Counted from the stretch's first letter, positions 15,184-43,979 are shown. The stretch: DNA of 64,000 bases from an uncultured Eubacteriales bacterium (GCA_948607205.1 CAPERS010000001.1:2522-66521), one strand, 5' to 3'. Notes: a model not told the origin generated them from the sequence alone. A program made the numbers and translations.

Positions 15184-16350
15184 ATGAAAAATAAAAAAAC
15201 TTTGAAAGCAAAAATTTCAGATATGGTCAAAACAATCAAGGCTTGGACATTGGTGACTTTCACAAGAGATAAAAGCCTTAACAATTTCACAAAAGCTGGT
15301 GTTGTTATCGGTCTTACAACAACTCCAATCGTTTTCGTTGCCTGCCTTCCAACTGAAAAACCAAATGATAACGAACAAAATTCAAGCGGTGACCAAATTC
15401 AAAGTGGTGACAAAAACCCAAGTGGCGACACAAATAAAGACCCAGAAAATCCATCAAATCCAGACAAACCAACTGACCCTACAAAACCAACTGAACCAGA
15501 AAAGCCAACCAATCCAACTGACCCAGAAAAACCAGCAATCCCTGGCGATGAGAACTATGACTACCCAACCACAATGGCAGAACTCGAAGCCTCACCAGAC
15601 AAAATCAAACTCCAACAACTCCTCACAAACTATATTGATGAGAATTTGAAGGAAATGATTGCAGGAATTGGATTTAACTTTTCTACACTTAAAAATACTA
15701 AAACAATTGCTTACGATATTGATGTTGAAAATAATAAAATTACAGGGTTTTTCAATACCGTTCGTGAAGAAAAAAATCATCAGTATTATATAACCGAAAG
15801 TTATATGAAAGAAGATACAAAAATAAATTTAGTAGAAATCTTGAAATATCAAGCACAAATTGATAATGACGAACTAGATGTTACCGCTCCAAAACCAGCA
15901 ATTCAAATCAATATCCCAAAAACAAAAAATTTATTTTCAATTGCAATAACAAAAAATCAAAATGAATTTCAACCTTATGCAAAAGATGTTCTTGAAAGTT
16001 TAACAGGTGAAAAACATGAAAATGCAGAATATTTTGCTGAAAACATGGGCTCAGCTCCTGCTTTTGGTAGCGGAAACCACCCTATTGTTAGAACAACAAA
16101 ATTATATAGAGAAGGTAATAAATTTACGATAAATTATATAACAATTATTGCAAAGGACTATAGTTCAATTGGAACAGAAAATGAAAAAGAGTATATTGAA
16201 AATAAGAAAGAAAAAATAACTTTTGGCACTGAAAACACATTTTATATTGAAGACATAAAAGAAAAAGAAGATGAAATTATAATGGTTTCAGTAGATAATA
16301 AGGAATACGCAATCATAAAAGACAATCAAACATATTTTATTGAACAGTAA
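15184..16350 (+). CDS. putative lipoprotein with Pro/Thr/Glu/Lys-rich linker, function unknown
   Basis: Hydrophobic segment ending IVFVAC (lipobox-like), then KPTDPTKPTEPEKPTNPTDPEKP low-complexity linker. 388 aa. Confidence 0.6.
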   Translation: MKNKKTLKAKISDMVKTIKAWTLVTFTRDKSLNNFTKAGVVIGLTTTPIVFVACLPTEKPNDNEQNSSGDQIQSGDKNPSGDTNKDPENPSNPDKPTDPTKPTEPEKPTNPTDPEKPAIPGDENYDYPTTMAELEASPDKIKLQQLLTNYIDENLKEMIAGIGFNFSTLKNTKTIAYDIDVENNKITGFFNTVREEKNHQYYITESYMKEDTKINLVEILKYQAQIDNDELDVTAPKPAIQINIPKTKNLFSIAITKNQNEFQPYAKDVLESLTGEKHENAEYFAENMGSAPAFGSGNHPIVRTTKLYREGNKFTINYITIIAKDYSSIGTENEKEYIENKKEKITFGTENTFYIEDIKEKEDEIIMVSVDNKEYAIIKDNQTYFIEQ

Positions 16351-16390
16351 GAATGCATTCACTTTGTTAATTCTTGCGTTCCTAAAAATA

Positions 16391-16416
16391 AAAAGAGCAG
16401 AAATGCTCTTTTTTGT
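16391..16416 (+). terminator. rho-independent terminator
   Basis: AAGAGCA-GAAA-TGCTCTT followed by TTTT. Confidence 0.6.
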
Positions 16417-16450
16417 TGATTTATTTTGAAAAATAGAGTAAAATAAAGTT

Positions 16451-18556: not shown

Positions 18557-18611
18557 GCGTGCCTTAAGCAAATATTATCAATAGGTTTTAATTAAAATCA
18601 ATCTTAAAAAC

Positions 18612-18645
18612 ACAAAAACCACGGAAAAATTCCGTGGTTTTTTAT
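18612..18645. terminator. bidirectional rho-independent terminator (left boundary of the phage-like island)
   Basis: AACCACGGA (18617-18625) / TCCGTGGTT (18631-18639) flanked by an A-run and a T-run. Confidence 0.7.
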
Positions 18646-18663
18646 CTTTATTGCTCTTAATTT

Positions 18664-18981
18664 TTACTCTTTTGTTTCTTCCTTTATATCTTCTTTTAAT
18701 TCCTCTTGCTCAATTTTTTCGTTCTCTGTTTTCTCATCAAGTTGTTCTTGGTCCTCACTTGTTTCGGTGTTGTCTGTTTTTGAATCCTCCTCTTTTTTTG
18801 GCATTGCAACCACTCCAAAAACAACGAGGATTCCGGCAAGTGCCATAACTATGTTTGACACAAGTTCTTCTTGAACAGAAAAACCAAAACATTTGCCAAT
18901 TGCATTGATAAGCACAACAAGAGCGCCTGCAAGTGCAGTCCAAAAGCCATATGAACGAATTTTATTCTTCATATCTCTCAC
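18664..18981 (-). CDS. phage holin-like membrane protein (phi LC3-type pattern) with long acidic tail
   Basis: KIRSYGFWTALAGALVVLINAIGKCFGF plus a second TM (IVMALAGILVVFGVVAM), then an E/D/K-rich tail. Distal end of the phage island. Confidence 0.55.
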   Translation of the reverse strand: MRDMKNKIRSYGFWTALAGALVVLINAIGKCFGFSVQEELVSNIVMALAGILVVFGVVAMPKKEEDSKTDNTETSEDQEQLDEKTENEKIEQEELKEDIKEETKE

Positions 18982-19189
18982 CCTCTTTTATATATTCTTT
19001 CAACTCACCCACCTCTTCTTTAACATCTTCGATAACTTTCAAATGCTCGGTGAGTTCGCCTATCGTTTTTTGATATTCCTTTTCACGTCTTGCACTATCT
19101 TTCAGTTGATAAAAAAACAAAAAGACAAAAAGCACTGCAAAAACGCCATAACTTATCACTATTTTGATAAGTTCATCCCAAAAGTTCAC
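18962..19189 (-). CDS. BhlA/UviB-family holin-like peptide
   Basis: 75 aa, GTG start. Single TM, with YGVFAVLFVFLFFYQLKDSARREKEYQ resembling the BhlA core, followed by a coiled acidic tail. Confidence 0.55.
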   Translation of the reverse strand: MNFWDELIKIVISYGVFAVLFVFLFFYQLKDSARREKEYQKTIGELTEHLKVIEDVKEEVGELKEYIKEGERYEE

Positions 19190-19301
19190 CTTTGTTTCCT
19201 TTAAATTTCTTCTCTTTCAAAAACTTTTCCATTTCAGCCTCCTCTATTTGCTGTTGAATTTTCTTTTCAAAACAAACATGTCCAAAATCGAAAACTATCA
19301 C

Positions 19302-20783
19302 TTAACTCTCCAAGTATTCAATTTGAAAACTGGTTATTTTTGCTTCGCCGTCGGCACAGATATTCAATTCAAAAACCTCGCCAAGCACGCTTGTTAAGAT
19401 TGTTTGAGGTTGACTTTTGCCAACAACTGAAATGCTTTTCTTTTGTCTTTCACTTGAGAAAGAAATTGTGCAGTCGTTTTCAGATATCAAATGAATTTTG
19501 TTTATCTTTTTAAGTTTTCCTGCTTTGCCAAAGTTTGTTTTAACGCTCCTCCACTCTTTTGGCAAACTTTCATCAAAAAGTTTTCCATTTTTTTCAATTT
19601 GTCCAATTTTGTTTTTGCTCTCATCATTAAAACACGCAACCAATTTGCTTTTAAGTGGATTATTTAAAACTGTGAGCGTGCGAACATCCATTCCGCGTGA
19701 AATTTCAACCTCGCCACTTGTTTGGTCGTAAACCAAAAGTGCATTATTGACAAAATCTTGATTGTTTTCACATCCGACTTTTTTGCCATCATCAAAGTTT
19801 AATCTGCATGCAAGATAATACTTTCCTTCAAAGCAAACGCCAGAAGAATGCTGGTTATCGTCACGCGTTAAAAGGTCATCACATTCAAGTGGCAAACTTT
19901 TTGTTGACGTGCCATTGAAAACCTTCAAGCCACTTCTTTCCAAGAAATATATTTTGTCACCTCCTGAAGCAATTGAACCCGGATAAATATATCCGTCCGC
20001 TTGATAAAGGTGACTTATTGAAAAGTCCTCTTTTGTGCTGTAAGTTGAAATTTTTGTTATGCCAAAATCGCGAAAAAGGTAAAGATAGTCATTGAAAGAT
20101 AGGATTTTGTTGAGATTTCCTCGCTCGTCGTTAAATTCAATGTGCTTAGTTTGTTCGTCATTCCATTCCAAAATATTGGTATTGTCCGTGTATACCAAAC
20201 TTCCTCTTGCACCTTTAGTTATTGCAAAAAGCTTATCATAATGAGTGCATATTGAAATAAGTTTTGGCGCAGACTCAACAGTGAAGTCAAAATTTGCACC
20301 AATAACTTTAAGCGGGCTTCCTTCGCCAGAAAAAACCATAACATCTTGCCCCTGATAACGATAAGGACAGCCTATCGGCGTGGAAGTGAAGTCGCAAGGG
20401 ATTGTCAAAGACAGCAATCTTTCACCAAAAAGATTGTCAAAATGAAAATTATCACTGCAGTTATAATACATCATATAATACTGATTGCTGTCATCAGTTT
20501 CATTATGCCATTTGAATGACCAAATGCTGGAAATGTTATCGCCGACCAATTCAACAACTTCTTCTTGTGCCAGGTTTTGTGGCGACTTTGGGCTTTTAAA
20601 CGCTGTGAAGCCATAGCCATTTTCAAGCCTGCCATTATTGATGCGAAAGTTATAGCAACGCTTGGCCTTTCTTCCGTTTTGAACAAAATCGTCTTTTTCA
20701 TCATTTGGACAATCTGCAAAAAGGTCATATATAAAAGTTTTTCTCTTTGTTTTAAGTGTGGGCACTTGATTTCTATAAAACAT
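19302..20783 (-). CDS. phage structural protein, repeat-rich (beta-propeller-like impression), in the position and size class of P22 gp10
   Basis: ATG at 20783 after AGGAGGAGG, overlapping the upstream stop as TGATG. 493 aa. Function inferred from gene order only. Confidence 0.5.
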   Translation of the reverse strand: MFYRNQVPTLKTKRKTFIYDLFADCPNDEKDDFVQNGRKAKRCYNFRINNGRLENGYGFTAFKSPKSPQNLAQEEVVELVGDNISSIWSFKWHNETDDSNQYYMMYYNCSDNFHFDNLFGERLLSLTIPCDFTSTPIGCPYRYQGQDVMVFSGEGSPLKVIGANFDFTVESAPKLISICTHYDKLFAITKGARGSLVYTDNTNILEWNDEQTKHIEFNDERGNLNKILSFNDYLYLFRDFGITKISTYSTKEDFSISHLYQADGYIYPGSIASGGDKIYFLERSGLKVFNGTSTKSLPLECDDLLTRDDNQHSSGVCFEGKYYLACRLNFDDGKKVGCENNQDFVNNALLVYDQTSGEVEISRGMDVRTLTVLNNPLKSKLVACFNDESKNKIGQIEKNGKLFDESLPKEWRSVKTNFGKAGKLKKINKIHLISENDCTISFSSERQKKSISVVGKSQPQTILTSVLGEVFELNICADGEAKITSFQIEYLES

Positions 20784-21319
20784 CACACCCACCTCCTCCT
20801 TGCAAGAATGGTTGAAGAATTTTTTCTCAATAAAACTTGAAGGCTGTTTTTGAATCTAACTTCAAAAATTTCAGCGTCTTCAAACATTCCTTCGCGCATA
20901 AGATATTCTCTTGCAACGCCATAAGCATAAACGCGTTCTGGCAAGTTGTCATAAATTTCATCTTCAAGGTTGACCTCTGCTGGCTGGTATGAATAAGTCA
21001 CTTTTGCTCTGTTAGCCTGAACCATGAGATAGTCTGGAAAAGCCCTGAATTTCAGTTTTCGACCAAATCTATCTTTGACCATATTGATTTTAAGTGGTTT
21101 GAACTTGAATGCTGAGAATGGCAATTTGAAATCTTTTATGTCAAGTTCTTCACTTTCAAGAACTGGCAAAAATTCACTTGCAACTTCGTTTCTGACAAGA
21201 TTGAAAATTTTTAAAAGTTTTGCAATCCTTTCGTCATCTGGCATTGTTTCAATAAGGTCTGCAATCTCCTCTTCTCCGATAAAACTGCAAGCGAGAGATA
21301 AAATATTTTTTACTTTCAT
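20783..21319 (-). CDS. putative head-tail connector/adaptor protein
   Basis: 178 aa, AGAGGAGG RBS, ATGA overlap with the upstream gene. The N-terminal acidic helix and C-terminal YAYGVAREYLMREGMFEDAEIFEVRFKNSL resemble gp6-like head-tail connector proteins. Position equals P22 gp4. Confidence 0.45.
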   Translation of the reverse strand: MKVKNILSLACSFIGEEEIADLIETMPDDERIAKLLKIFNLVRNEVASEFLPVLESEELDIKDFKLPFSAFKFKPLKINMVKDRFGRKLKFRAFPDYLMVQANRAKVTYSYQPAEVNLEDEIYDNLPERVYAYGVAREYLMREGMFEDAEIFEVRFKNSLQVLLRKNSSTILARRRWV

Positions 21320-21624
21320 GAAAGCGCCTCCTCTAATTTATTTACTTCCTCTTTCAAAACTTTTTTCATCATCATTTCATTTTCTTTGTCAAGTTCGGCG
21401 ATGATTTTGTCTTTATTTTCAACTCTGGTCCTCAAAGCGTGGTCAATCGTTCGGCAATCCAAAAGCTCAAACGGAACTGTGAAACAATAACTTGAGCCAC
21501 GCTGTTCACTGCTGTGAACTTCAAACTTTTGTGAATCTGTGTTGTATAAAACAAAATATGACCGGTCTATTTCTTTCAATCTTTCACAGATAAACAAGGC
21601 ATCAGTCAAAATTTTTAATTTCAT
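21316..21624 (-). CDS. phage hypothetical protein (102 aa)
   Basis: Start moved to the ATG at 21624 behind AGGAGGAG. Lies between the capsid and connector genes. Confidence 0.55.
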   Translation of the reverse strand: MKLKILTDALFICERLKEIDRSYFVLYNTDSQKFEVHSSEQRGSSYCFTVPFELLDCRTIDHALRTRVENKDKIIAELDKENEMMMKKVLKEEVNKLEEALS

Positions 21625-21707
21625 AAATCTCCTCCTAAATTGACAAAAAAGGCAAAAATTTGCTTCAAATAGCAAAAAATTTGCCTTTTTGTAATGAAAA
21701 AATTTTA

Positions 21708-22934
21708 TTAAGCGTTTTCAGAACCACTGTTTGAAACGTTTACAGTTGTTGAAAATGGATTTGTTACTGTTGATTTGATTCCGCTGATGAGCGCTTGTCC
21801 ACAAGGCTTATCGCAGATAAGTTCAGCATATTTAACAAGAGTTGCGCTGTAAGTTGGATAGTTTTGATTTTGTTTTAAAATGCGTCCATCTTCGCCTTCA
21901 AGCCATTTCCAGTCGCAAAGTTCATGAAGTGTGAAGTCATTTGTGTTTAAGAGATACATTTTGTCGTCATCAACAAATCTGTCAGCAACAACAGGAATGC
22001 CGTTGTGAGTGATTGTTTTGTATCCGCCTTCAAGTTCAGTGACATCAACGTTTCTTCTGTAAGCGCCAAGATATTCTTGATATGCTCTTCTAACTGCACT
22101 TGATGTTGCAATAAAGTTAATGTTTGAATCGTTATTCATATCAAGGAAGTCAATCGCTTGTTGGATAAGAATGTCAGAGATTTCAGTTGCAGTTGTGCTA
22201 ACATAAGGGTTAAGCCATTGATAGTCTGACTTTTTAACGCCATAAATCTCAGTTGCTGATGTGTCAAAAATTTTGCCAAGACCAGAAATTTCATAGCCTT
22301 TTGAACCTTGAACATAAAGTTTGTGTCCTTGTGCAATTGTTCCAGTGAAAAGTGATGCGTCAAAGTGGAAAGTTTTGTTCACTCTGTCAACATATGTGAT
22401 TTTAACAATTTGATTTGCGTTAACTTTTGTTTCACCATTATAGATGTCAACAAGCATACCTTCGATAAGGTTGTTAACTTTGTCGCAAACAACTTTGTTT
22501 CCGTCAACGGAAGCAACAGTTGCAAGAAGACCACTACCATCGCCATAAAGCATTCTTCCAAGGTTGAAAGCACTTGCCTTAACAAGACCTTCCATTTCGT
22601 CTGAAAGAAGGTTTACGAATGCACCAATATTGCTTGCAGATGCTCTTACTGATTTGTCAGAAAGTTCAATCTTGCCATAAAGGTTTTTGAGTTCTGCAAC
22701 AAATTGAACATATCCGTTTCCAGAAGATGCAGGAAGTTCGCCTGCTTCAGAACCTGCACCAATTCCGCCATTGATTCCGAAAGGTGCAAGTTTTCTTATT
22801 TCTTTGCCCCAAACATCTTTGCTTGATCGCTTTATCTTTGCCATGAGTGGATTTGCTTTAACATTAAGTTGATTTGCCACAACATCAAGATAAACATTCT
22901 TCAAAGCGTTTTCGGCTGTTTGTAATGTTACCAT
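21708..22934 (-). CDS. phage major capsid protein (HK97-fold family)
   Basis: 408 aa. RMLYGDGSGLL matches the conserved flxGDGsG motif of HK97-family capsid proteins. Follows the scaffold gene. TAGGAGAA RBS. Confidence 0.78.
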   Translation of the reverse strand: MVTLQTAENALKNVYLDVVANQLNVKANPLMAKIKRSSKDVWGKEIRKLAPFGINGGIGAGSEAGELPASSGNGYVQFVAELKNLYGKIELSDKSVRASASNIGAFVNLLSDEMEGLVKASAFNLGRMLYGDGSGLLATVASVDGNKVVCDKVNNLIEGMLVDIYNGETKVNANQIVKITYVDRVNKTFHFDASLFTGTIAQGHKLYVQGSKGYEISGLGKIFDTSATEIYGVKKSDYQWLNPYVSTTATEISDILIQQAIDFLDMNNDSNINFIATSSAVRRAYQEYLGAYRRNVDVTELEGGYKTITHNGIPVVADRFVDDDKMYLLNTNDFTLHELCDWKWLEGEDGRILKQNQNYPTYSATLVKYAELICDKPCGQALISGIKSTVTNPFSTTVNVSNSGSENA

Positions 22935-23107
22935 AATTTTCTCCTATTTTGTGCTTTAAGCACCTTTATTTTTGTTTAATTTTTTCTTTAGAAATGCAAC
23001 TATTGCACCTAAAGTCTTTTATTTTTTAATTATTTTTTTTCTTTTTTTTGGTGCTTTAAGCACCTTTATTTTTTAATTTGTTTTTTTCGATAGGCAATAA
23101 TTGCCCA
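22935..23107. repeat. 173-nt A/T-rich intergenic spacer with four short hairpins, including an exact 23-nt direct repeat 100 bp apart
   Basis: GTGCTTTAAGCACCTTTATTTTT at 22951-22973 and 23051-23073. Also TGCAA-CTA-TTGCA (about 23005-23017) and GGCAA-TAA-TTGCC (23093-23105). Confidence 0.85.
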
Positions 23108-23731
23108 CTAACTGAACATTTTGTTCACCAAAACCTTTGCTTCTTGCAGGGTTTTCGGAGCGTCAGGCATAACGCCCGACACTCTTTCCCCTCTTTGAGA
23201 AGAAATAACAATTGGTGGTTTTTGTTCTTTTAAAGTTTGCAAATAGTTCTCGATGATGACTTTTTTGATTTCGTCATCAGAAAGGACATATTTGTTTAAG
23301 ATTGGGTCGTTTGGCTTGATGTCAGACAAGTGATTTGTCACAACACTATTCCAAGCAACTTCGATTGGGTTTGGCAAAGTTTTTAAAGACTGGTCAGAAT
23401 TGACCTTTTCTTTGATTTCGTCAACAGCCCAAGACGCATCGGAATGCTCTGAAAGGAACTTATTTATTTCCACATCCAAATCAAGTTCAGTTTTTATTTC
23501 AGATGTGGAATTTTCAGTTTTATCTTTTTCAAGTTCGCTTATGCGTTGACATTTGCGAGTGAACTCTTTTTCAAGCGTGTTATATGCATCTAACAACGCT
23601 TTGGCAGATTTAAATTTGCCAAGTTCACTCATGTCTTTTTGAGAGCCGACCTCGCCACCGGCTCTTTCTTCAATCTCCGTGCCCACGGAATCTGCCTGCA
23701 TTATGGTCGGTTGTTCTCTGTTTTCTTCCAT
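23108..23731 (-). CDS. putative capsid scaffolding protein
   Basis: 207 aa, acidic and helical (ELEKDKTENSTSEIKTELDLDVEINKF), located between portal and capsid. AAGGAGG RBS. Confidence 0.6.
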   Translation of the reverse strand: MEENREQPTIMQADSVGTEIEERAGGEVGSQKDMSELGKFKSAKALLDAYNTLEKEFTRKCQRISELEKDKTENSTSEIKTELDLDVEINKFLSEHSDASWAVDEIKEKVNSDQSLKTLPNPIEVAWNSVVTNHLSDIKPNDPILNKYVLSDDEIKKVIIENYLQTLKEQKPPIVISSQRGERVSGVMPDAPKTLQEAKVLVNKMFS

Positions 23732-23733
23732 TA

Positions 23734-25614
23734 CTATACCTCCTTAGCCTTTTTATGCTCTCGCACATGGCTTAAAAATTTTTCTTCCAAGTTTTTATCT
23801 TTTGAAACTGCTTTTTCATAGTCATTTCCAAGCATAAATGCAATATGCTCATTGATATGAAGTTCGTGGTCATCAATCTCACTGATGGCAACGCTTTCGC
23901 CACCAAGAAGTCTGATGTTTTCATTGTCAGCCTTTTTGATGTGAAGTTCGTTGAGGTCTTGCGCATTTTCCCAGACGCCCAGTCCAAGACTTTCGAGAAC
24001 TTTATATTTCATTCGCTTTGACAATTTGCCATTTTCATCGCTAAGCACACCAGAGTTTAACAATGCAAACACCATTTCTCTTTTTTGAGTGAGGGTTTGA
24101 GTTGAATCATTCATTGTTTCAATTTCAACATCGTCACTTGAAATGTCATTTGAATTGAAATAGAAAAGTTCAATCTGACCATTATCGCCAGCAATACGTG
24201 CAATTCTTGGGAAAAGTGCATATTGTTTATATAACCTCAAAATTCTTTTTGAAATTTCTTTATAGCATGACTTAATGCTTTCAATGGTTGAATTAAGCCT
24301 TATTTCATCTTGACCAATCAAAAGTTCAAGCGTGACACCTGAAAGGTTTGATGAAACATATTCTGAGCCCAAAGTTTCGCTTATGCCACCAATTTTATAA
24401 AACTCTTCATTCAGTCTTTTCTCTTCTTCATTGAAATCTGCCGGAAGTGTTTGAGTTTGAAGATACTTTGGTTCGCTTGAACCCTGTCTATAAACCAAAA
24501 CCTTGCCTGGACACAAACCTTCATCTTCAAGATTATCAAGGTCAACTGAACCATCTTCAACTGAAAGCACTCCCAGTGAAAGCCTGTTGATGAACTCATG
24601 CTTGCGATTTTTTACCGCGTTATATGCACGCTGAACAGGAATGATTCTTTCAATCACGCTTGCTCCCCAGAAACATGCAGGCTGTTCAATGCTGATTTGC
24701 TTGACAAAAGGCAGGTCGCGCTTGCCATCTTCACCACAGAAATATGGGAGCGAGCCATCATAGACAACTCTTTTTCCGGCAATAATTATCAATCTGCCTT
24801 CTGGAAAATCTTTGTTTGGTCTTATGTATTTCTCAATCACGAGCGCACTGTCTTCTCTCACACTTTCAATAACCTTAGTTGCCATGCCATTGAATCCAAG
24901 ACCTGCCATGCCTGCTGTCACACTGTCAAGTGCGAATGTGTTCAAACGTTCACTTTCAACTTCGATGCCATACATATCTTTTATTTCAGCAAGAGTGTAT
25001 GCTCTGGCATGGATTATGCTTTGGCAATCATCAATTGTTTCGCACGTGTTTGAATCGGGATAAATTTCAAAAGGACTGCAAACTGAAATGTCAATTTCGC
25101 CACCACGAATTTCAAGTCCGTCTTCATCCAAACCAACAAGTTGTCCGGCATTTGGATTCCAGTTGACTTTATAGAAACTTGTTCCACAGACTTCACTCCA
25201 CTTTATTGCTTGGTTTATCTTTGCAGGAAGGCCAAGTTTGTTTCCAACTGAATTTAAAATCTTGTTTGAAATCTTTGCTGTTTGCTTGTCGCGCTCATCA
25301 TTCGTTGCTGGCAAAACATGAACCTGTTGTTTTATTTTTGATAACTTTGCAAAACGAATATCAAATATCGGTGCAATATGGTTAAAAACTTCTCTCTCCT
25401 GCCAAAAAAACTGTTTGTCTGTTTCTTCAACCAGTCCGCCATATCCAACATCGCAATATTGATTTCCCATAAGATAGTTCATATTTAATTGCCAAATTGT
25501 GTCAAAACTGCGTCTTGCATCGGCACGAGCATGAAAATCTCTCATAACCTCTTCAACGATTTTTCTGTTTTCTTTGCTGTCTTCTCTTTTTGCTTTAATG
25601 TTTTCTCTTATCAT
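23734..25614 (-). CDS. phage portal protein
   Basis: 626 aa. N-terminal RRSFDTIWQLNMNYLMGNQY resembles the W..n..fy.G.Q motif of portal proteins. Size and position upstream of scaffold and capsid fit. Confidence 0.75.
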   Translation of the reverse strand: MIRENIKAKREDSKENRKIVEEVMRDFHARADARRSFDTIWQLNMNYLMGNQYCDVGYGGLVEETDKQFFWQEREVFNHIAPIFDIRFAKLSKIKQQVHVLPATNDERDKQTAKISNKILNSVGNKLGLPAKINQAIKWSEVCGTSFYKVNWNPNAGQLVGLDEDGLEIRGGEIDISVCSPFEIYPDSNTCETIDDCQSIIHARAYTLAEIKDMYGIEVESERLNTFALDSVTAGMAGLGFNGMATKVIESVREDSALVIEKYIRPNKDFPEGRLIIIAGKRVVYDGSLPYFCGEDGKRDLPFVKQISIEQPACFWGASVIERIIPVQRAYNAVKNRKHEFINRLSLGVLSVEDGSVDLDNLEDEGLCPGKVLVYRQGSSEPKYLQTQTLPADFNEEEKRLNEEFYKIGGISETLGSEYVSSNLSGVTLELLIGQDEIRLNSTIESIKSCYKEISKRILRLYKQYALFPRIARIAGDNGQIELFYFNSNDISSDDVEIETMNDSTQTLTQKREMVFALLNSGVLSDENGKLSKRMKYKVLESLGLGVWENAQDLNELHIKKADNENIRLLGGESVAISEIDDHELHINEHIAFMLGNDYEKAVSKDKNLEEKFLSHVREHKKAKEV

Positions 25615-34397: not shown

Positions 34398-36179
34398 TTA
34401 AAGCATTTTTTCTTTACTTTCCGCATTCTGATAAAGCGTGCGATAAAAATCATTATTTTCAAGAAGTTCTTCATGCTTGCCTTGACCGATAATTTTGCCT
34501 TTGTCAAGCAGGTATATGCAGTCTGCATACGTTATGGTTGAAAGCCTGTGTGCAATCAAAATGATTGTCACTTTGTTTTTAAGTTTTTCAATCACTTTCA
34601 TGATTTCTTTTTGAGAAGAATTGTCAAGAGCGCTTGTTGCCTCATCAAAAATCATTATTTTAACATCACGTGCAAGCGCTCTTGCAATGCAAATCTTCTG
34701 CCTCTGCCCACCAGAAAACTGACAGCCATTTTCACCGATAATACTATCAAGACCGAGTGGTAACTTTTTCACATGATTCAAAATGTCAGTTTGCTTGCAA
34801 AGTTCATATATTTCTTCGTCAGTGATATCAGGCTTAATCAACTTAAAATTATCACGAATTGAAATATTAAAGATATATGGGAACTGATTGACAACTGCAA
34901 TATTTTCTTTAACAAACTCTTTGCTAAGCTCTTCAATCGGCACATCATCAAAAAGAATTTGGCCTGAATTTTTGTAATATAAATGTGCAATGAGGCTGAT
35001 GATTGTTGACTTTCCGCACCCACTTTCTCCAACAAAAGCAACTGTCTGCTTTGGCAAAATTTCAAAACTTGCATTCTTTAAAACTTTCTTATCTTTACCA
35101 TAATTGAAAGTAACATTTTTAAAGGTGATTTTTCCTGAAAAATTTTCAATAGTTTTATCGCCATAATAATCTTCTTCATAGATGCTTGGGTCGGCTATTT
35201 TAAAAATTCGCATTGCATGGACTTCGGCTGTTCCAATATTGATTTGAAGGTCACCAAAAATCTGTGCAAAGTCAAGCATATGGTCTTTATACAAAAAGCA
35301 GGTGTAGAAAATTAGTGGCGTCAAACTTTCCATGCGAAGAAAATACACGCAAAGGAAGATGAAAAAGAAATTGCACACGAACTGAATAATTTTTGAAATT
35401 TCAACAAGAGTTATTCCGACATACCACTCGTGATTGTCTTTTTTAACAAAATCTCTTTGGTCTTTTTCTATTGTTTGAAGAGTTGAATCAGTGCAATTGA
35501 GTGTTTTGATATCTTTAACTCCTCGAATAATTTCAATAATTTTCGAATTGACCTTTTCAATTGAACGTCTAACATCTGGTTTTAGTTTAGTTAAATAATG
35601 AACGCGAACTGAATAAGCAATTATTGTGAGTAAAATAGTTCCAACCAAAAATAGTCCAAGATAATAGTTTAAGAAGAAAATGTAAATCACATATGCAAAC
35701 TTGCTTATAAGATTAACAACTTTGGTTGTGAACGCTTGAAATTCTTTTGAAATGTGGTCAATATCAGATGTCAGGCGAGTGACAATAACGCCACTGCCCA
35801 TAACGTCATAACTTTTCATTTGAATGTCGAGTGATTTTCTTAAGATATACTGCTGAATGTCAATTTTTGAGCGGTTTTCTACTTGCTTATAGAAATATGT
35901 GTTAAGAATTGATAAAAGAGCGCTGAAAGTGGTTATACCAAGCGAAATTCCAGCATTGATAAGCGCGCCTTTAAAATCACCGCTTTCCATAATGCATGCG
36001 ATTGTCTTTGCAATAAACATTGCATCAAAAAAGCTTATGCATGCTTTGATCAAAAGCACAATAACATACAACCCAAGAAAGACCCAGTGCTTTTTATAAA
36101 ACTTTAAAAGCGTTCTGAGCCCGATATACTTTTTTTCTTTCTTCTTTCCGAACTTTTGCTTTTGTGAAACTATTTCCAT
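34398..36179 (-). CDS. ABC exporter, fused permease-ATPase half transporter (MsbA/multidrug type)
   Basis: 593 aa with six N-terminal TM helices. GESGCGKST Walker A, FSGGQRQKICIARAL signature, MIFDEATSALD Walker B. Confidence 0.9.
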   Translation of the reverse strand: MEIVSQKQKFGKKKEKKYIGLRTLLKFYKKHWVFLGLYVIVLLIKACISFFDAMFIAKTIACIMESGDFKGALINAGISLGITTFSALLSILNTYFYKQVENRSKIDIQQYILRKSLDIQMKSYDVMGSGVIVTRLTSDIDHISKEFQAFTTKVVNLISKFAYVIYIFFLNYYLGLFLVGTILLTIIAYSVRVHYLTKLKPDVRRSIEKVNSKIIEIIRGVKDIKTLNCTDSTLQTIEKDQRDFVKKDNHEWYVGITLVEISKIIQFVCNFFFIFLCVYFLRMESLTPLIFYTCFLYKDHMLDFAQIFGDLQINIGTAEVHAMRIFKIADPSIYEEDYYGDKTIENFSGKITFKNVTFNYGKDKKVLKNASFEILPKQTVAFVGESGCGKSTIISLIAHLYYKNSGQILFDDVPIEELSKEFVKENIAVVNQFPYIFNISIRDNFKLIKPDITDEEIYELCKQTDILNHVKKLPLGLDSIIGENGCQFSGGQRQKICIARALARDVKIMIFDEATSALDNSSQKEIMKVIEKLKNKVTIILIAHRLSTITYADCIYLLDKGKIIGQGKHEELLENNDFYRTLYQNAESKEKML

Positions 36180-36346
36180 TTTTTCCTCTTTGTTATATAT
36201 TTTTCCTTTGCGCTCGGAAGTTTCAAGTTTTGGCAGTTAAGCCAAAACTTGACCAACAAATTTCGAATGCAATTTGTTGGAGCGGAAAGCGCGACGGTCG
36301 CAAGCGAAACCGCTTGCACCTTGCACTTTCCGCCGCTTCCGAGCTC
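36180..36346 (-). promoter_or_regulatory. GC-rich, highly structured 5' leader (candidate cis-regulatory RNA of unknown class) of the ABC exporter
   Basis: Closing helix GCTCGGAAG (36336-36344) / CTTCCGAGC (36212-36220) encloses three hairpins: a long imperfect GC-rich one (36281-36335), a 10-bp one (36253-36280) and an 11-bp one (36224-36251). Confidence 0.4.
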
Positions 36347-36352
36347 ACACAT

Positions 36353-36381
36353 ATTCTACCAAATCCCCCCCCCCGCGTCAA
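36353..36381 (-). promoter_or_regulatory. near-consensus sigma-A promoter with extended -10, spacer built from a G10 tract
   Basis: Minus strand TTGACG (36376-36381), 17-nt spacer CGGGGGGGGGGATTTGG, TAGAAT (36353-36358) with a TGn upstream. Confidence 0.6.
36365..36374. repeat. C10/G10 homopolymeric tract
   Basis: Ten consecutive C on the plus strand, read directly. The only long G/C homopolymer I noticed in this AT-rich window. Confidence 0.95.
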
Positions 36382-36400
36382 GTGAAAACCTATGAAATTT

Positions 36401-38227
36401 TTATTTTTCAACTTCAAAACTCCAATCAATATCTTTTTCATAAAATCCATTATCAAACAATTCTTTATAGAACTTAATTTTCTTAACATCACTTTTTTTA
36501 ATTGCCATTCGTTTGGCATGATTAAGAAAACAGCATAACATCACAAATTTAATTTGTCCGTCAAGGCGCTTAGGAAGCTTTTCTCCATAAACACCTTGTA
36601 AATAACCTTTTAAAAATCCTTTATTTATAGGTGTAGTATTAGAAAAGAATTTGTCTGAGATATTGTATCTGAAATTCACAATTTCGTAACCAATGCAATA
36701 ACTCTCATTGTCGGCTATGTAAAAATCTTCACCTGTTTTTGATAAGACGTTAGCAAACTTTAAATCTGCATGAGTCAAATGCATAGGTTCATCTTTAAAA
36801 TGCTTTTTAAATTTATTAAGAAGTTTTATAATTTCTTTTTTATCGCAAGGAATTTGATTTTTAATATTGCTTGAATATGCTATCTCGATATTTTCATAAT
36901 TTTTCTTCATAATATCTTCAATAGTAACAATATGGTAAAGACTTTCATCTTTCAATTCCCAAATTGGTTTAAAAGCTTCCGCAACTTTTATTCCACATTT
37001 CACGCCACTTTCAAAATCGTTTTCATCAAAAAATTTATCCCATTCTTTGCCGTCAATAAATTCAAATAGAACAAACATTTTTTCACAAGATGCTTTTCCA
37101 CTGCAATATATTTTTGGAGTTGGAATTTTTGATTTTGCGAGAATATTATATTTTTTTAAACGTAAGCCTAGTTTTTCTTCACTTCCTTCCATAATTTTAA
37201 GAAAATATTTTTTATGTCCTTTTGTGCATTTAAAAACTAAATTATGGTCGTCATAACTTCCGTCAACGACTTCAAACTTTGCACCTTTTATAAGCCTGCA
37301 AACGTTTGGTTTAAAATTAATTAACCTCTCAGTTATATCAACTTGTCCATTTTTTACATATTTTTCAATGATTTCAATATATTTTTCTGCTTTTTCAAAG
37401 TTATCTTTTTCTATATACTTTTTAATTTCTCTAAAAGCCATCATTGCAAACATGCAATTAATTGCACTTAGAACTCGCTCTGGAACATTGAACTGAAAAT
37501 ATCCTTCCATGTATCCACTTGAAAAAGATAGATACTTTTCAATTAAATCCGCATCACCTGAAACCAGTCCCCATCTTAAAGCGGTTGAAAATTCAAAATG
37601 TTTAATTTGTTCAAAATCAACTGCAACAAGTTTGTTTTCATTTGTTATCATAAAATTTTTAGGCTTTATATCTGTGCAACCAAAGCACATCAAACTGTTT
37701 TTGATGTCTGATAAATTGTTTTCAAAATAATCTTTCAAATCAAGAAAAGTTTTTTTACTTTTTGAAGTGAGTTTATCAAGACCTTTGCACCTTTCGTCAA
37801 ATTCTCTTTCAACTCTTTCATGCTTTTCATTAAAAATTTCAAGAGCTTTTTTATCAACTTTTTTATCTTTAAAGTCCTTTCTGAAATTGCTATATTTCTC
37901 GCCAAGCTTGAATCCATATTCATATATACCCTTTGTTGATTTTACAAAAAATTGGTCGAATAAATCTTTTCCCTCAACAAATTCTTCAATGATAAAACTA
38001 AACCCATCAAGATTTTGTCCAACCTCAATGACTTTTGCGTGAGGAATTGAATAGCTTGTTAAAAACTCTTCAATATCACTTCTGATATTGCTATCTTTAA
38101 TTTTTATAAAATATCTTTTGCCGTCTTTTGTGAAAAAGTATTTTTTAGCAGAAGAATACCCTCCTGTGCACTCTTCAAAATCAGTCGCACCTTCGAGAAA
38201 ATGTATTCCTTCAAAATCTTTCATCAT
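36401..38227 (-). CDS. tandem double kinase-like protein (two APH/choline-kinase-type phosphotransferase domains)
   Basis: 608 aa. Domain 1 catalytic loop CTDIKPKNFMI...VAVDFEQ. Domain 2 LTHADLKFANVL...IADNES. Each domain starts with a K(K/R)YF(I/L)KI lysine strand. Confidence 0.65.
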   Translation of the reverse strand: MMKDFEGIHFLEGATDFEECTGGYSSAKKYFFTKDGKRYFIKIKDSNIRSDIEEFLTSYSIPHAKVIEVGQNLDGFSFIIEEFVEGKDLFDQFFVKSTKGIYEYGFKLGEKYSNFRKDFKDKKVDKKALEIFNEKHERVEREFDERCKGLDKLTSKSKKTFLDLKDYFENNLSDIKNSLMCFGCTDIKPKNFMITNENKLVAVDFEQIKHFEFSTALRWGLVSGDADLIEKYLSFSSGYMEGYFQFNVPERVLSAINCMFAMMAFREIKKYIEKDNFEKAEKYIEIIEKYVKNGQVDITERLINFKPNVCRLIKGAKFEVVDGSYDDHNLVFKCTKGHKKYFLKIMEGSEEKLGLRLKKYNILAKSKIPTPKIYCSGKASCEKMFVLFEFIDGKEWDKFFDENDFESGVKCGIKVAEAFKPIWELKDESLYHIVTIEDIMKKNYENIEIAYSSNIKNQIPCDKKEIIKLLNKFKKHFKDEPMHLTHADLKFANVLSKTGEDFYIADNESYCIGYEIVNFRYNISDKFFSNTTPINKGFLKGYLQGVYGEKLPKRLDGQIKFVMLCCFLNHAKRMAIKKSDVKKIKFYKELFDNGFYEKDIDWSFEVEK

Positions 38228-38316: not shown

Positions 38317-39183
38317 TCAAATTTTAATAAATTTTGCAATTTGTTTTGCAAGTTTATCAGAACTATTATAGCAAGCCATAAGGTTTCTTTCAACCTTTGG
38401 GAAGTCTATCACTTCAACAGTTTTTAAATGAAATTTGTTTGCAATTTCTTGCGGAAGTAGACCAATTCCAACACCTTCTTTGATAAGTGAAAGAACTGTT
38501 GAATCATCACCGCAAGTCATTGTGCTGGCAAACGAATATTGCATCCAAGAGCTATCTCTTCGACCATCTCTTCTTTTTATCAAAATGATAAACTTGTTAA
38601 GCTCTTCAATGGTCATCTTGTCCTTTAAATTAAAAAACTGTGGATTATATGCCATTTTATAATGCAACTTTTTTATCAATTTATTTTCAATTTCCTTTGA
38701 GTAAAAATCGGTTGAAGTTTTCAAAACTGCAAGGTTTGCTTGATTGTTTTGCAAACCTTTAACTATTTCAGGTTCTCTTATTCTTTCCACAAATTCAAAA
38801 TTTATTTGAGGAAAGTTTTTAACAATTTCGTTAATATTTTCTGTTATACAAAAATTAAAACAGGATTTTGAGATTGCAATTTTAAAAGTTGAGTTTGCCT
38901 CCAATAGAGCATTCTTTTTTGTTTCTATAACTGCTTGTTTCAAAGCATTGACCCCTTGCAAAGCTTTTTCATAGAGAATCTTCCCTTCCTCTGTAAGCAC
39001 AATTCCCCTTGTGTTACGATTAAACAGTTTCACTTCAAGTTCCTCTTCAAGATTTTTCATTGCTTGACTTAAAGCTGATTGACTTATCTGCAAAGAACGA
39101 GCCGATTTTGAAATGCTTCCATGCTTTGCCACATTGACAAAATATTTTATATAATTTAGATTGTAATTATTTATATTTTCCAT
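38317..39183 (-). CDS. LysR-family transcriptional regulator
   Basis: Start at the ATG at 39183. NLNYIKYFVNVAKHGSISKSARSLQISQSALSQAMKNLEEELEVKLFNRNTRG is a canonical LysR HTH, followed by a substrate-binding domain. Confidence 0.85.
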   Translation of the reverse strand: MENINNYNLNYIKYFVNVAKHGSISKSARSLQISQSALSQAMKNLEEELEVKLFNRNTRGIVLTEEGKILYEKALQGVNALKQAVIETKKNALLEANSTFKIAISKSCFNFCITENINEIVKNFPQINFEFVERIREPEIVKGLQNNQANLAVLKTSTDFYSKEIENKLIKKLHYKMAYNPQFFNLKDKMTIEELNKFIILIKRRDGRRDSSWMQYSFASTMTCGDDSTVLSLIKEGVGIGLLPQEIANKFHLKTVEVIDFPKVERNLMACYNSSDKLAKQIAKFIKI

Positions 39184-39215
39184 GTTTGAATTTCCTTTTT
39201 TCAATTTTATCAAAA

Positions 39216-39249: not shown

Positions 39250-42200
39250 TCACCTTTTTTTAATGTAAATTGTGATATTTTCGCCATTAACAGAAAGTTG
39301 AGCGCTGTTTGTGCCATTTGTGCCAACAGAAAAACTGTCTGCAAGAAGGGTCTTTTTGAAAGAAGTTTGATTTTTGTTTAGAATTTCAATAAATTCTTTA
39401 TCACCCTCAACTTGAATTTCTATATGGTTGACAACTTCAAAGCCACTATCTTTTCTGAGGTTTTGCACCTTGCTGACAAACTCATTGATCATACCTTTTT
39501 CAATAAGGTCATCACTAAGTGTTGTGTCAAGTACAACAGTGAAAACGCCATCGCTCTCTGATGAATAGCCTTCTTTGTTTTTAAGAGAAATTAGAAGGTC
39601 ATCTTGATAGATTTCAACCTTTTCTCCATTTGTTTCAAAAGTCAAAGCCTCACCTTTTTTAACTTTGGCAACCGCTTCATTTGGATTAACTTTGCCGAGA
39701 TATTCTCTTATAGCACCCAAAAGTTTGCCATATTTTGGCCCAAGCGTTTTGAGTTGAGGTTTGAGTTCATATGAAACATACTCATCAGCGTCATGCAAGA
39801 TTTCAACGCTCTCAACATTGAGTTCGTCTTCAATCAGCATAACAAGGCCTTTGTCAAGAGTCAACTTATCAGTTGAACAAATGATAACCTTTGAAAGTGG
39901 CTGACGGTTTTTAACTCCACTTGCTGAACGGCAAGCTCTTCCTAGAAGAACAATTCTAAGAACTTTTTCCATACCCTCGTTAAGTTTAGTATCAATCATA
40001 CTCTCATCACAAACTGGATATGAGCAGAAATGCACACTCTCTGGCGCATTTTTGTCGAGCGAACGAACAAGATTTTGATAAATCTCTTCTGCAATGAAAG
40101 GCACAAAAGGAGCGATAAGTTTAGATAGCCCAACAAGCACTTCATAGAGCGTCTTGTAAGCAGAAATTTTATCCTCACTTTCCTCACTACCCCAAAATCT
40201 TTCACGCGAACGGCGAACATACCAGTTGGAAAGGTTATCCACAAACTCAGTGATTGCACGAGAAGGCGTGACAGTGTCATACCTTTCAAGACTTTCGTCA
40301 ACGAGCTTTACAAGTGCGTTATATTCCGACAAAAGCCACTTATCAAGGAAAGAAAGCTTGCATTTTTTGAGGTCATATTTGGTCGGATCAATCTTATCAA
40401 TCTCAGCATACAGCACGTAGAACGCATACACATTCCAAAGTGTGCCCATAAATTTGCGTTGAAGCTCAATGAGGTTATTTTCATTAAACGCAATGCCTTG
40501 ACCTGCCAAACAGTTATTGTAGAAATACCATCTTAATCCGTCAGCGCCTTCATTGTCCAAAATCTTCCAAGGATCAATACCATTGCCAAGAGATTTGCTC
40601 ATTTTCAGACCATGTTCGTCGAGAACAAGACCCAAAAGGTTGCAAGCTTTATATGAAGGCTTGTCAAAAACAGCAGTGTTAACCGCTTGAAGAGTGTAGA
40701 ACCAGCCACGAGTTTGGTCAATCGCCTCACTAATATAGTCTGCAGGGAAAGATTTTTCAAAAACTTCCTTGTTTTCAAATGGATAGTGATATTGTGCAAA
40801 AGGCATTGAACCACTGTCGAACCAGCAGTCCATAACCTCAGGTGTTCTTTTCATGGTCTTATGACAAACTGGGCAAGGGAAAGTTATCTTATCAAGGCTT
40901 GGCTTGTGTAGGTCATCTGGTCGAACGCCAGAAAGTTTTTCAAGTTCATCCACACTTCCAACAACGTGAATGTGACCATCTTCACAGGTCCAGAATGGAA
41001 GAGGTGTTCCCCAATATCTGCTTCTTGAAATTCCCCAATCGATGTTATTTGCAAGGAAATTGCCCATTCTGCCCGCTTTGATGTGGTCAGGACGCCAATA
41101 AACTGAATTGTTGTTCTCAATCATTTTGTCCTTGATTGCAGTGGTCTTCACAAACCAAGTGTCCTTCGCGTAGTATAAAAGTGGCGATTTGCATCTCCAA
41201 CAATGTGGATAAGAGTGTTCGATAGGCGCAACTTTAAAAAGCTGGTCTCTTTCTTCAAGCGTTTTGATAACGTGTTTGTCTGCATCTTTCACAAAAAGTC
41301 CAGCAAATTCAGTTTCCTTGCTCATCTTTCCTGCTTCGTCAACAAGTTGAACAAAATCGATATCATATTTTTTGCAAACGTTATAGTCATCTTCACCAAA
41401 GGCTGGCGCGATGTGAACTATGCCTGTTCCGTCTTCGGTTGTGACATAGTCATCATTAACAACAAAGTATCCCTTTTTAACTTTATCTTTTGCATAGTCA
41501 AAAAGTGGTGCATAGCGGTGACCTTCAAACTCTTTACCCTTCTTTTTTGATACAATGTTATAACTTCCCTCTTCAAAAAGAGTTGGAACAAGTTTTGTGA
41601 GCATGATATATTTCTTGCCTTCACTTTCAAGTGTGCAATATTCCTCTTTTGGATTCATGCAAAGTGCAACATTTGATGGCAATGTCCATGGCGTTGTTGT
41701 CCAAACAAGAAAATATGTGTTTTCTTCTTCAAGACTTTTGAATTTGACAAATACTGAGTTTTCTTTGAGAATTTTATAGTTATCGCCGTTTTCAAGTTCC
41801 ATTTTAGAAAGCGTTGTTCCACAGCGTGGGCAGTATGGCATAATTTTATGGCCTTTGTATATAAGACCTTTTTTGTCCATTTCCTTGAGCGCCCAAAAAA
41901 CGCTTTCGATATAGTTATTTTCATATGTGATGTATGGACTTTCCATATCAACCCAATATCCAATTCGGTCAGTGAATTTTTCCCACATACCTTTGTATTT
42001 CCAAACAGATTCGCGGCAAAGTTTTATGAAGTTTTCAACTCCATACTTTTCAATGTCTTGCTTGCCGTTAAGCCCAAGTTCTTTCTCAATTTCAACCTCG
42101 ACAGGAAGGCCGTGAGTATCCCAGCCTGCTTTTCGGAAAATATAGTATCCCTTCATTGATTTGAAACGTGGGATAATGTCTTTCATGGCACGAGTCAAAA

Positions 42201-42378
42201 GGTGACCAATGTGTGGCTTGCCGTTTGCTGTTGGTGGGCCATCATAAAGTGTGAAAGTTTTGTCACTGTTTTCGTGAAGGTGAAGTCCTTTTTTAACAAT
42301 GCCATTTTCTTCCCAAAATTTTAAGATATTGTCCTCGTTTTTTAAGAAATCAAGTTTGGTTTCAACTTTTTTATACAT
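39250..42378 (-). CDS. ileS: isoleucyl-tRNA synthetase (long type-2 form)
   Basis: 1042 aa. PPTANGKPHIGH (HIGH) and KMSKS motifs. Preceded by a T-box leader with an AUC specifier. Confidence 0.97.
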   Translation of the reverse strand: MYKKVETKLDFLKNEDNILKFWEENGIVKKGLHLHENSDKTFTLYDGPPTANGKPHIGHLLTRAMKDIIPRFKSMKGYYIFRKAGWDTHGLPVEVEIEKELGLNGKQDIEKYGVENFIKLCRESVWKYKGMWEKFTDRIGYWVDMESPYITYENNYIESVFWALKEMDKKGLIYKGHKIMPYCPRCGTTLSKMELENGDNYKILKENSVFVKFKSLEEENTYFLVWTTTPWTLPSNVALCMNPKEEYCTLESEGKKYIMLTKLVPTLFEEGSYNIVSKKKGKEFEGHRYAPLFDYAKDKVKKGYFVVNDDYVTTEDGTGIVHIAPAFGEDDYNVCKKYDIDFVQLVDEAGKMSKETEFAGLFVKDADKHVIKTLEERDQLFKVAPIEHSYPHCWRCKSPLLYYAKDTWFVKTTAIKDKMIENNNSVYWRPDHIKAGRMGNFLANNIDWGISRSRYWGTPLPFWTCEDGHIHVVGSVDELEKLSGVRPDDLHKPSLDKITFPCPVCHKTMKRTPEVMDCWFDSGSMPFAQYHYPFENKEVFEKSFPADYISEAIDQTRGWFYTLQAVNTAVFDKPSYKACNLLGLVLDEHGLKMSKSLGNGIDPWKILDNEGADGLRWYFYNNCLAGQGIAFNENNLIELQRKFMGTLWNVYAFYVLYAEIDKIDPTKYDLKKCKLSFLDKWLLSEYNALVKLVDESLERYDTVTPSRAITEFVDNLSNWYVRRSRERFWGSEESEDKISAYKTLYEVLVGLSKLIAPFVPFIAEEIYQNLVRSLDKNAPESVHFCSYPVCDESMIDTKLNEGMEKVLRIVLLGRACRSASGVKNRQPLSKVIICSTDKLTLDKGLVMLIEDELNVESVEILHDADEYVSYELKPQLKTLGPKYGKLLGAIREYLGKVNPNEAVAKVKKGEALTFETNGEKVEIYQDDLLISLKNKEGYSSESDGVFTVVLDTTLSDDLIEKGMINEFVSKVQNLRKDSGFEVVNHIEIQVEGDKEFIEILNKNQTSFKKTLLADSFSVGTNGTNSAQLSVNGENITIYIKKR

Positions 42379-43706: not shown

Positions 43707-43979
43707 AGTCGAGCTAGATGGAGAGTTAGCGGTGCTCTGTAACCTACAATCCGCTATATGTAGGGTTGAATGCTTGCCTCGGTTTAGTTAAGTCAAATAT
43801 GTGTATAAATTTTTGATGTTGAAATCAAGGTCCTATGCAAAAGGAATCTTCGAACCATGTCAGGCCCTGACGGGAGCATCATTAAGAGGACACTCCTTTG
43901 TGCCATAGGGAAACTTTGGTGGAGTCAAAAATTTATAAGGCAGTTGGTTTAACTCTATCAAAGCAAGTTGCTCGGCTTT
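43707..43979 (+). ncRNA. ffs: signal recognition particle RNA, large Bacillus-type (scRNA with Alu domain)
   Basis: GTTAGCGGTGCTCTGTAACCTACAATCCGCTATATGTAGGGTTGAAT parallels the B. subtilis scRNA Alu domain. GTCAGGCCCTGACGGGAGCATC parallels the conserved domain IV GUCAGGUCCGGAAGGAAGCAGC. The 5' CGAGC pairs with the 3' GCTCG. Ends are approximate. Confidence 0.85.

Follow-up and report, generated by a model that had tools for sequence, protein, structure and literature searches.

A length-variable poly-G tract in the spacer of a promoter-like block upstream of the gene for an ABC exporter in an uncultured lineage of gut Clostridia

Genes and promoter-like block at the exporter locus

In this study, a stretch of 64,000 nucleotides from an uncultured Eubacteriales bacterium (36% G+C), hereafter the window, was analyzed. 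On its minus strand, positions 34398–36179 encode an ABC exporter of 593 aa, an ABCB/MsbA-type half-transporter in which TMD and NBD are fused (Pfam ABC_membrane and ABC_tran). The exporter matched no NCBIfam family at cut-off, and its nearest solved structures were P-glycoprotein, BSEP, and MsbA. Upstream on the same strand lies a gene for a 608-aa APH-type phosphotransferase-like protein (36401–38227), which was recognized by a weak domain match and had neither an NCBIfam match nor a solved relative. Next come genes for a LysR-family regulator (38317–39213, minus strand) and IleRS (39250–42378, minus strand), the latter followed by an intrinsic terminator; two methyltransferase genes are also on the minus strand and complete a LysR-APH-ABC-methyltransferase synteny. 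Exact-protein look-ups returned no recorded match for the APH-like or LysR protein of the window. The flanking genes were as originally described, an ABC exporter and a kinase-like gene, by their Pfam domains. No mismatch-repair gene (mutS or mutL) was found among the 38 ORFs of the window that were scanned. Elsewhere in the window, a patch of ORFs without Pfam matches (15184–25614) adjoins the gene for a P22-like portal protein (23734–25614); this region is probably a prophage remnant amid core genes (EF-Tu, S7, PcrA, LigA, ComEC, TopA, DprA, and HslV).

Between the APH-like and exporter genes, the minus strand reads TTGACG (36381–36376), C (36375), ten G residues (36374–36365), ATTTGG (36364–36359), and TAGAAT (36358–36353). 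The -35 box TTGACG (36376–36381) shares 5 of 6 positions with TTGACA, and the -10 box TAGAAT (36353–36358) is separated from it by a 17-nt spacer (C-G10-ATTTGG). The ATTTGG filler (36359–36364) completes the spacer and supplies the TGn of an extended -10 element (T36361-G36360), and the G10 homopolymer (36365–36374) forms its length-variable portion. This architecture, including the placement of the tract exactly between the two boxes, is the one claimed in the original prediction; it was confirmed both by reading the minus strand and by a separate mechanical promoter scan, which returned the identical site with 10 of 12 matches and the TG. The -35 box lies 20 nt from the end of the APH-like gene, and the A/T-rich, UP-element-like stretch 5′ of it (36382–36409, minus strand) includes the stop codon of that gene (36401–36403). 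From promoter geometry, the transcription start is predicted at 36345–36347, 6–8 nt past the -10 box and at the base of the closing stem of the leader described below. The exporter gene has a Shine-Dalgarno sequence, AAGAGGA (36184–36190, minus strand), which is kept in the lineage alignment, and its ATG (36179) lies 174 nt downstream of the -10 box, or about 167 nt from the predicted start near 36346, in line with the distance of about 165 nt given earlier.

The tract was the sole run of six or more G or C residues in the window, as had been noticed for long G/C homopolymers. From the base composition of the window, 4.4 runs of at least 6 and 0.006 runs of at least 10 would be expected. A random 10-mer would fall wholly within the spacer of a promoter-like site with at least 10 of 12 matches at P = 0.0033, or at P = 0.0007 when TGn was also required. 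The G10 tract is a real, non-chance feature of the sequence.

Two other readings of the promoter region were considered and dropped. A sigma-H-type reading of the GAAT in the -10 box was ruled out by inspection, the spacing to the AGG motif being wrong, and an internal leader promoter (TTGAAA-16-AAAAAT, 36226–36199) was not kept in the related assembly L024.

Tract length and conservation of the block in related assemblies

Contigs encoding an identical or nearly identical exporter were compared, together with one species-representative genome. Twelve assemblies including the window, all of them short-read metagenome assemblies, had the LysR-APH-ABC-methyltransferase synteny, and the tract was kept in 12 of 12, as G8, G9, or G10. 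All of these reach the length of about 8 G or C residues from which a homopolymer is expected to be hypermutable. Length heterogeneity among strain variants was thus present. The window and L003 have TTGACG-C-G10-ATTTGG-TAGAAT with a 17-nt spacer, and L001 and L002 have the same block with G9 and a spacer of 16 nt. L024 and L062 carry TTGACG-C-G9-ATTTGG-TAAAAT (16 nt), with the filler unchanged and the -10 box altered throughout the L024 lineage. L004 has TTGCCG-C-G9-ATTGTG-TAGAAT (16 nt), in which TGn is lost and the -35 box differs from that of the other 11 assemblies. The filler is absent from the remaining five, which have TTGACG-C-G8-TAGAAT with a 9-nt spacer (L021, L022, L023, and L063) or TTGACG-C-G9-TAGAAT with a 10-nt spacer (L025), so that both G8 and G9 alleles occur in this deletion lineage. 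Of the expectation that slippage by one G would give 16- or 18-nt spacings, the first part was borne out, spacers of 16 and 17 nt both being found; an 18-nt spacer was absent among intact blocks.

Polymorphism on an otherwise identical background was observed directly. Alignment of the window with L001 over 7783 nt and with L002 over 5397 nt showed no mismatches and, in each case, a single gap, which corresponds to one G of the tract. As a control, nine runs of A7/T8 within the aligned stretch were invariant among the three sequences. Since the three differ by one G only while the A/T runs do not vary, the G tract changes far more readily than any other site of the locus, as far as short-read assemblies can tell.

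The same data might be read another way, in which the promoter is real and the tract a conserved spacer, with the differences among G8, G9, and G10 arising from errors of sequencing or assembly, or from rare neutral polymorphism, and no adaptive switching taking place. G homopolymers are prone to sequencing error; all lengths came from short-read metagenome assemblies, some at 4–5x (by contig name, coverage is low in L063, 3.9x, and L025, 5.0x); lengths differ by only one G in either direction within a sequence type; and L001 and L002 may derive from one sample. On the other hand, each tract length was present in at least two assemblies, no other difference was found over 5–8 kb, and the nine A/T runs of 7–8 were invariant. 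An unselected run of 9–10 G would also be expected to be broken by substitutions, neighboring intergenic DNA being only 44–64% identical, and the window is otherwise devoid of such G/C runs. In addition, the G9–G12 range seen in Faecalibacterium prausnitzii (see below) is too wide for errors of one residue. We therefore consider error or neutrality an unlikely explanation. The contig of L025 ends 7 nt before the tract, which fits a branch in the assembly graph and is weak evidence at 5x coverage.

Conservation of the block was examined between the window and L024, which represent the two deepest lineages. The block was identical at 27 of 29 positions, with a difference of one G in the tract and a G-to-A substitution within the -10 box. 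Identity in the surroundings was 64% in the 60 nt upstream, 44% in the 8 nt downstream, 53–59% in the leader core, and 56% in the remaining UTR. The positions kept were exactly the -35, TGn, and -10 elements, and the UP-like motif TAAAAATTT-N7-TTTT was retained in both. In both lineages, 8 nt separate the -10 box from the base of the closing stem, though these 8 nt are themselves only 44% identical; a start 6–8 nt past the -10 box is therefore predicted to fall exactly at the foot of the leader structure.

L004 has lost LysR and all but about 70 codons of the APH-like gene, a remnant that ends in an A12 run (L004 1288–1660). Here the IleRS terminator is followed after about 390 nt by the block, and block, leader, and intact exporter gene are all kept, although the -35 box is weaker (TTGCCG) and TGn is missing. 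Since the block was kept when the upstream genes were lost, it is probably the exporter's own promoter.

This retention bears on a further alternative, namely, that the block is not the exporter promoter but is kept as, for example, a protein-binding site or a border of the cassette described below, with the exporter being expressed by read-through from the APH promoter. No terminator was detected in the terminator scan between the APH-like gene and the block, so read-through into the exporter is possible, and strong promoter-like sites occur upstream of the APH-like gene, such as 38393–38365, with 11 of 12 matches and the TG. The block is always accompanied by the cassette and is missing from orthologues with 67–69% identity, and the lineage lacking ATTTGG retains an intact exporter behind a 9–10-nt spacer. 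However, L004 has neither APH nor LysR and stands behind a terminator, so that read-through from the APH promoter is not the source of its exporter expression. The match between conserved positions and promoter elements, the 8-nt distance fitting a start at the stem base, and the occurrence of the same design immediately upstream of genes in unrelated organisms also argue against this alternative, which we regard as quite improbable.

Comparison of the window with closer lineages gave the reverse of the pattern found with L024. The leader core was 94–99% identical, whereas the block was identical at only 25 of 29 positions in L004 and 21 of 29 in L021. The changes comprised G indels, the -35 mutation, loss of TGn, and deletion of ATTTGG. 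The window allele has the best geometry of all, and each of these changes is predicted to weaken the promoter by comparison. The ATTTGG deletion (L021 2800–2830, and likewise L022, L023, L063, and L025) occurred with GG microhomology at the tract edge and removed TGn; the exporter gene of this lineage is intact (598 aa). From its geometry, this allele is probably locked-low, the deletion having probably abolished promoter function. The same five assemblies argue against a simple tuning role of the tract, because they show that the exporter can be maintained without this promoter geometry and that a tract of G8–G9 persists where no spacer role is possible. In strains with a 9–10-nt spacer, either read-through suffices or high expression is dispensable. 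Taken together, the changes fit fluctuating selection on exporter level, acting via reversible slippage and occasional irreversible lesions.

Distant orthologues of the exporter in L005, L064, and L073 (67–69% identical) have other neighborhoods and short, plain intergenic regions. Because the block is missing there, it is, judging by these comparisons, a lineage-specific regulatory acquisition. In L005, TTGAAA-17-TAGAAT is found near the ATG.

The neighborhoods of the other two orthologues were also recorded. In L064 (2062–4761), the exporter gene directly follows a gene for a nucleotidyltransferase of PF04439 (streptomycin adenylyltransferase type), and in L073 (979–7710), it is located between uvrB and uvrA; in the lineage of the window, its upstream neighbor is the APH-like gene. 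The recurrent pairing of the exporter with enzymes of antibiotic-modifying type hints at a drug-related role.

Structured leader and hairpin cassette

The original prediction did not include the structured leader, the ATTTGG-deletion alleles with their 9–10-nt spacers, or the inverted cassette, all of which were found here. Downstream of the block, a leader at 36344–36212 (minus strand) is predicted to fold into a four-way junction with about 53 base pairs in total, in which a 9-bp closing stem surrounds three hairpins with no linker bases. The 5′ arm of the stem, also the left inverted repeat (GCTCGGAAG, 36336–36344), is identical at 9 of 9 positions in all lineages, and the 3′ arm, the right inverted repeat (CTTCCGAGC, 36212–36220), is kept at 9 of 9 in L024 and L062; in L024 the closing stem is a perfect inverted repeat of 13 bp. 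Between the arms lies a 115-nt internal cassette (36221–36335) of three near-perfect hairpins, H1 (36281–36334), H2 (36253–36280), and H3 (36223–36252), all on the minus strand. The fold energy was -93 kcal/mol for a 224-nt region (z = -7.6 versus shuffles) and -81 kcal/mol for the 133-nt core alone. The G+C content of the leader region is 44–54% in 100-nt windows, compared with 36% in the genome.

Several functions were considered for the leader. Rfam searches at gathering and permissive thresholds gave nothing beyond chance level for the leader of the window or that of L024, and neither leader type thus matched a known RNA family; the only Rfam family at gathering score in the window was the bacterial large SRP RNA (43709–43975, plus strand; 170 bits). 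A riboswitch was rejected, loop and junction bases not being conserved between leader types. A leader peptide or attenuator was rejected as well: the 60-aa ORF at 36170–36352 begins upstream of the predicted start and is missing from L024, and the leader contains no terminator. A MITE or other mobile element was dismissed, since no second copy of the leader was found in the 64-kb window, and a scan of viral contigs with the inverted-repeat pair gave only 7 matches, which were attributable to chance, lay in coding sequence, and had no hairpins. The structure begins at the predicted +1, and none of its unpaired bases is conserved; with low confidence, we propose that the leader might be a 5′-end stabilizer or processing element. 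Stabilizing stem-loops are known from the 5′ termini of Firmicute mRNAs, for example, those of aprE and ermC in Bacillus subtilis. The present leader resembles them in that strong structure begins only a few nucleotides from where the 5′ end is predicted, and it differs from these single hairpins in being a four-way junction of the kind described above.

In L024 (2835–2967) and L062, the core is also exactly 115 nt long and consists of three hairpins, but of different sequence and in mirror order. The core of the window aligned with that of L024 at z = 5.0 as reverse complement, compared with z = 1.3 directly. After inversion in silico, L024 has GCTCGGAAGTGGCG at the boundary, in common with L004 and L021, and shows compensatory double changes at 15 of 53 pairs, with about 59% identity overall. 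Five stem positions of L024/L062 deviate from Watson-Crick pairing, and every one of them reads C.A in the sense direction but G.U in the antisense direction. Folding of the antisense strand there is favored by about 10 kcal/mol, whereas in the window type the sense strand folds slightly better. From this strand bias and the better antisense fold, the cassette of L024/L062 appears to have taken shape as RNA while oriented as in the window, with its inversion following later in the L024 lineage. Single loops were flipped too, namely, that of H2 between the window (GCATTCG) and L021/L025/L063 (CGAATGC) and that of H1 between L024 (TAT) and L062 (ATA). Small loop inversions bounded by stem arms are known for chloroplast hairpins. 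The flipped loops point to palindrome dynamics at the DNA level, and template switching or similar dynamics could explain the lasting perfection of the arms. The palindromes may thus be kept perfect at the DNA level or, alternatively, at that of the RNA.

These inversions raise the possibility that the leader is the main control, with the 115-nt cassette between its 9–13-bp inverted repeats acting as an invertible DNA switch and the G tract being secondary. The opposite orientation in L024/L062, the better reverse-complement alignment, the shared GCTCGGAAGTGGCG boundary, the C.A/G.U pattern with its more stable antisense fold, and the two hairpin loops flipped between close strains would agree with such a switch. 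However, no pair of assemblies had one sequence in both orientations; the two forms are about 59% identical and are fixed lineage differences rather than two states of one strain. The hairpins being palindromic, inversion hardly alters the RNA structure, and no terminator is formed in either orientation. A scan of 38 ORFs of the window revealed no recombinase, though one elsewhere in the genome is possible. An inversion switch as the main control is therefore highly improbable in our view.

Phase variation in Clostridia has been described as site-specific DNA inversion (PMC11868660), including the invertible 5′-UTR switches of Clostridioides difficile at cwpV, flgB, cmrRST, and pdcB (PMC11868660). 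The present locus resembles these switches in its Clostridia host, in the position of the element between promoter and start codon, in the flanking inverted repeats, and in the occurrence of both orientations across lineages. It differs from them in its inverted repeats of 9–13 bp, in its palindromic hairpins, in the slight effect of orientation on the RNA, and in that no recombinase gene was found among the scanned ORFs of the window.

Predicted spacer tuning and similar promoters elsewhere

The reading we favor, to which we assign a probability of about 0.55 on the sequence evidence, is that the G tract is the hypermutable part of the spacer in a sigma-A-type promoter that belongs to the exporter itself and is tuned by slippage. 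During replication, slipped-strand mispairing would add a G to the tract or remove one, by which the distance from TTGACG to TGn-TAGAAT would shift from 17 nt (G10, the optimum) to 16 nt (G9) or to 15 or 18 nt. The change in spacing would alter the frequency of initiation by RNA polymerase, and the population would come to consist of heritable, reversible subpopulations with more or less exporter. Transcription would start near 36346, where the very stable four-way-junction leader begins, and this leader would most plausibly shield the 5′ end of the mRNA.

Spacers of 16 and 17 nt are both normally functional, with 17 nt being optimal. Since both lengths work and read-through is possible, the predicted outcome is most likely graded, like a dial, and not strictly on or off, and the step between a 16- and a 17-nt spacer may change expression only modestly when TGn is present. 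Promoter-spacer phase variation, as originally predicted, was thus supported in part, at the level of sequence, by the length polymorphism, the conservation of the block, and its retention in L004, and was modified in that control of volume rather than on/off switching is expected.

Slippage-based promoter switching is textbook knowledge in Neisseria, Haemophilus, Campylobacter, and mycoplasmas. Simple sequence repeats (SSRs) in or near promoters are found at hifA/hifB of H. influenzae (TA), opc and fetA of N. meningitidis (poly-C), vlp of Mycoplasma hyorhinis (poly-A), and fim of Bordetella pertussis (poly-C). As at the present locus, a repeat in or beside the core promoter shifts the spacing of elements in these cases, where expression is graded or on/off; the type of repeat, the host group, and the class of target are different here. 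To our knowledge, the classic cases all control surface structures of host-adapted pathogens. Length variation of promoter SSRs has also been treated as a general principle (PMC5084427). The closest parallel is porA of N. meningitidis, in which, according to van der Ende et al. (1995, J Bacteriol 177:2475; cited in PMC5084427), a poly-G spacer alters the distance between -35 and -10. Common to porA and the present locus are a poly-G tract of about 9–11 within the spacer of a promoter of sigma-70 type, which is a predicted one here, a spacing that slippage by one G would move around 17 nt, and length differences among strains. Unlike porA, which encodes an outer-membrane antigen of a proteobacterial pathogen, the target here is a cytoplasmic-membrane ABC exporter, and the host belongs to an AT-rich uncultured gut Clostridia lineage. 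The present, predicted promoter further differs in its TGn extended -10 and the 133-nt structured leader. A full-text literature search found no report of SSR promoter switching for Faecalibacterium, Clostridia, or ABC exporters, although absence is not provable in this way.

Metagenome loci were searched with the pattern TTGACGC-G8+-N0-14-TARAAT; as the architecture is demanded by the pattern, the number of matches proves nothing in itself. A stricter pattern with exact flanks gave no matches. The relaxed pattern yielded 36 loci in about 8 unrelated families, most of them directly upstream of a Shine-Dalgarno sequence and ATG, and two families varied in tract length among near-identical contigs.

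In F. prausnitzii, named by the source of the homologue P0169, the design precedes a gene for a 174-aa hypothetical lipoprotein (contigs L026, L028, L030, L041, L043, L045, L048, L052–L054, L056, and L060). The promoter reads TTGACG-C-Gn-(ATGCTG, AAAACTG, or AACTG)-TAAAAT, with tracts of G9–G12 and spacers of 16–20 nt, and the gene is situated within a cluster of paralogous small lipoproteins. By its promoter sequence, this lipoprotein is a candidate for phase variation in a culturable gut species. Another family encodes small Cys-rich secreted proteins in multiple copies in organisms of 50–60% G+C (contigs L027, L029, L032–L034, L038, L039, L044, L047, L050, and L058). Its upstream region consists of a conserved 30-nt box (attggtcacaaaaatggcaaaaattgggta), TTGACG-C-G8-11-ACGGTG-TAGAAT, and a Shine-Dalgarno sequence. 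One contig carries two copies at a distance of about 2.3 kb, and the tract of each has a length of its own. From these sequences, poly-G spacers beside TTGACG are recurrent and extend to a second Clostridia lineage.

A broader and more doubtful proposal is that TTGACG-C-Gn-(5–7 nt)-TA(G/A)AAT represents a widespread, unrecognized class of contingency promoters in gut Clostridia (a Christensenellales-like lineage and F. prausnitzii), coupled at the present locus to a flippable 5′ UTR cassette flanked by inverted repeats. If such a class exists, slippage promoters would stand alongside the known inversion switches of Clostridia. If spacer tuning holds for the exporter, abundant uncultured gut Firmicutes would also use homopolymer contingency promoters, in this case to control an efflux-type function in place of a surface antigen, and the cells of a clonal population would differ in export or drug tolerance.

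The scaffold of L017 showed an apparent 17-nt indel, which proved to be a gap of Ns and was disregarded. In a further family of the metagenome search, labeled TnpB-like (IS200/IS605 OrfB) from its N-terminal sequence alone (L031, L036, L042, and L059), the tract was fixed at G8 within a 17-nt spacer with TGn, and the promoter design was located 117 nt upstream of the gene.
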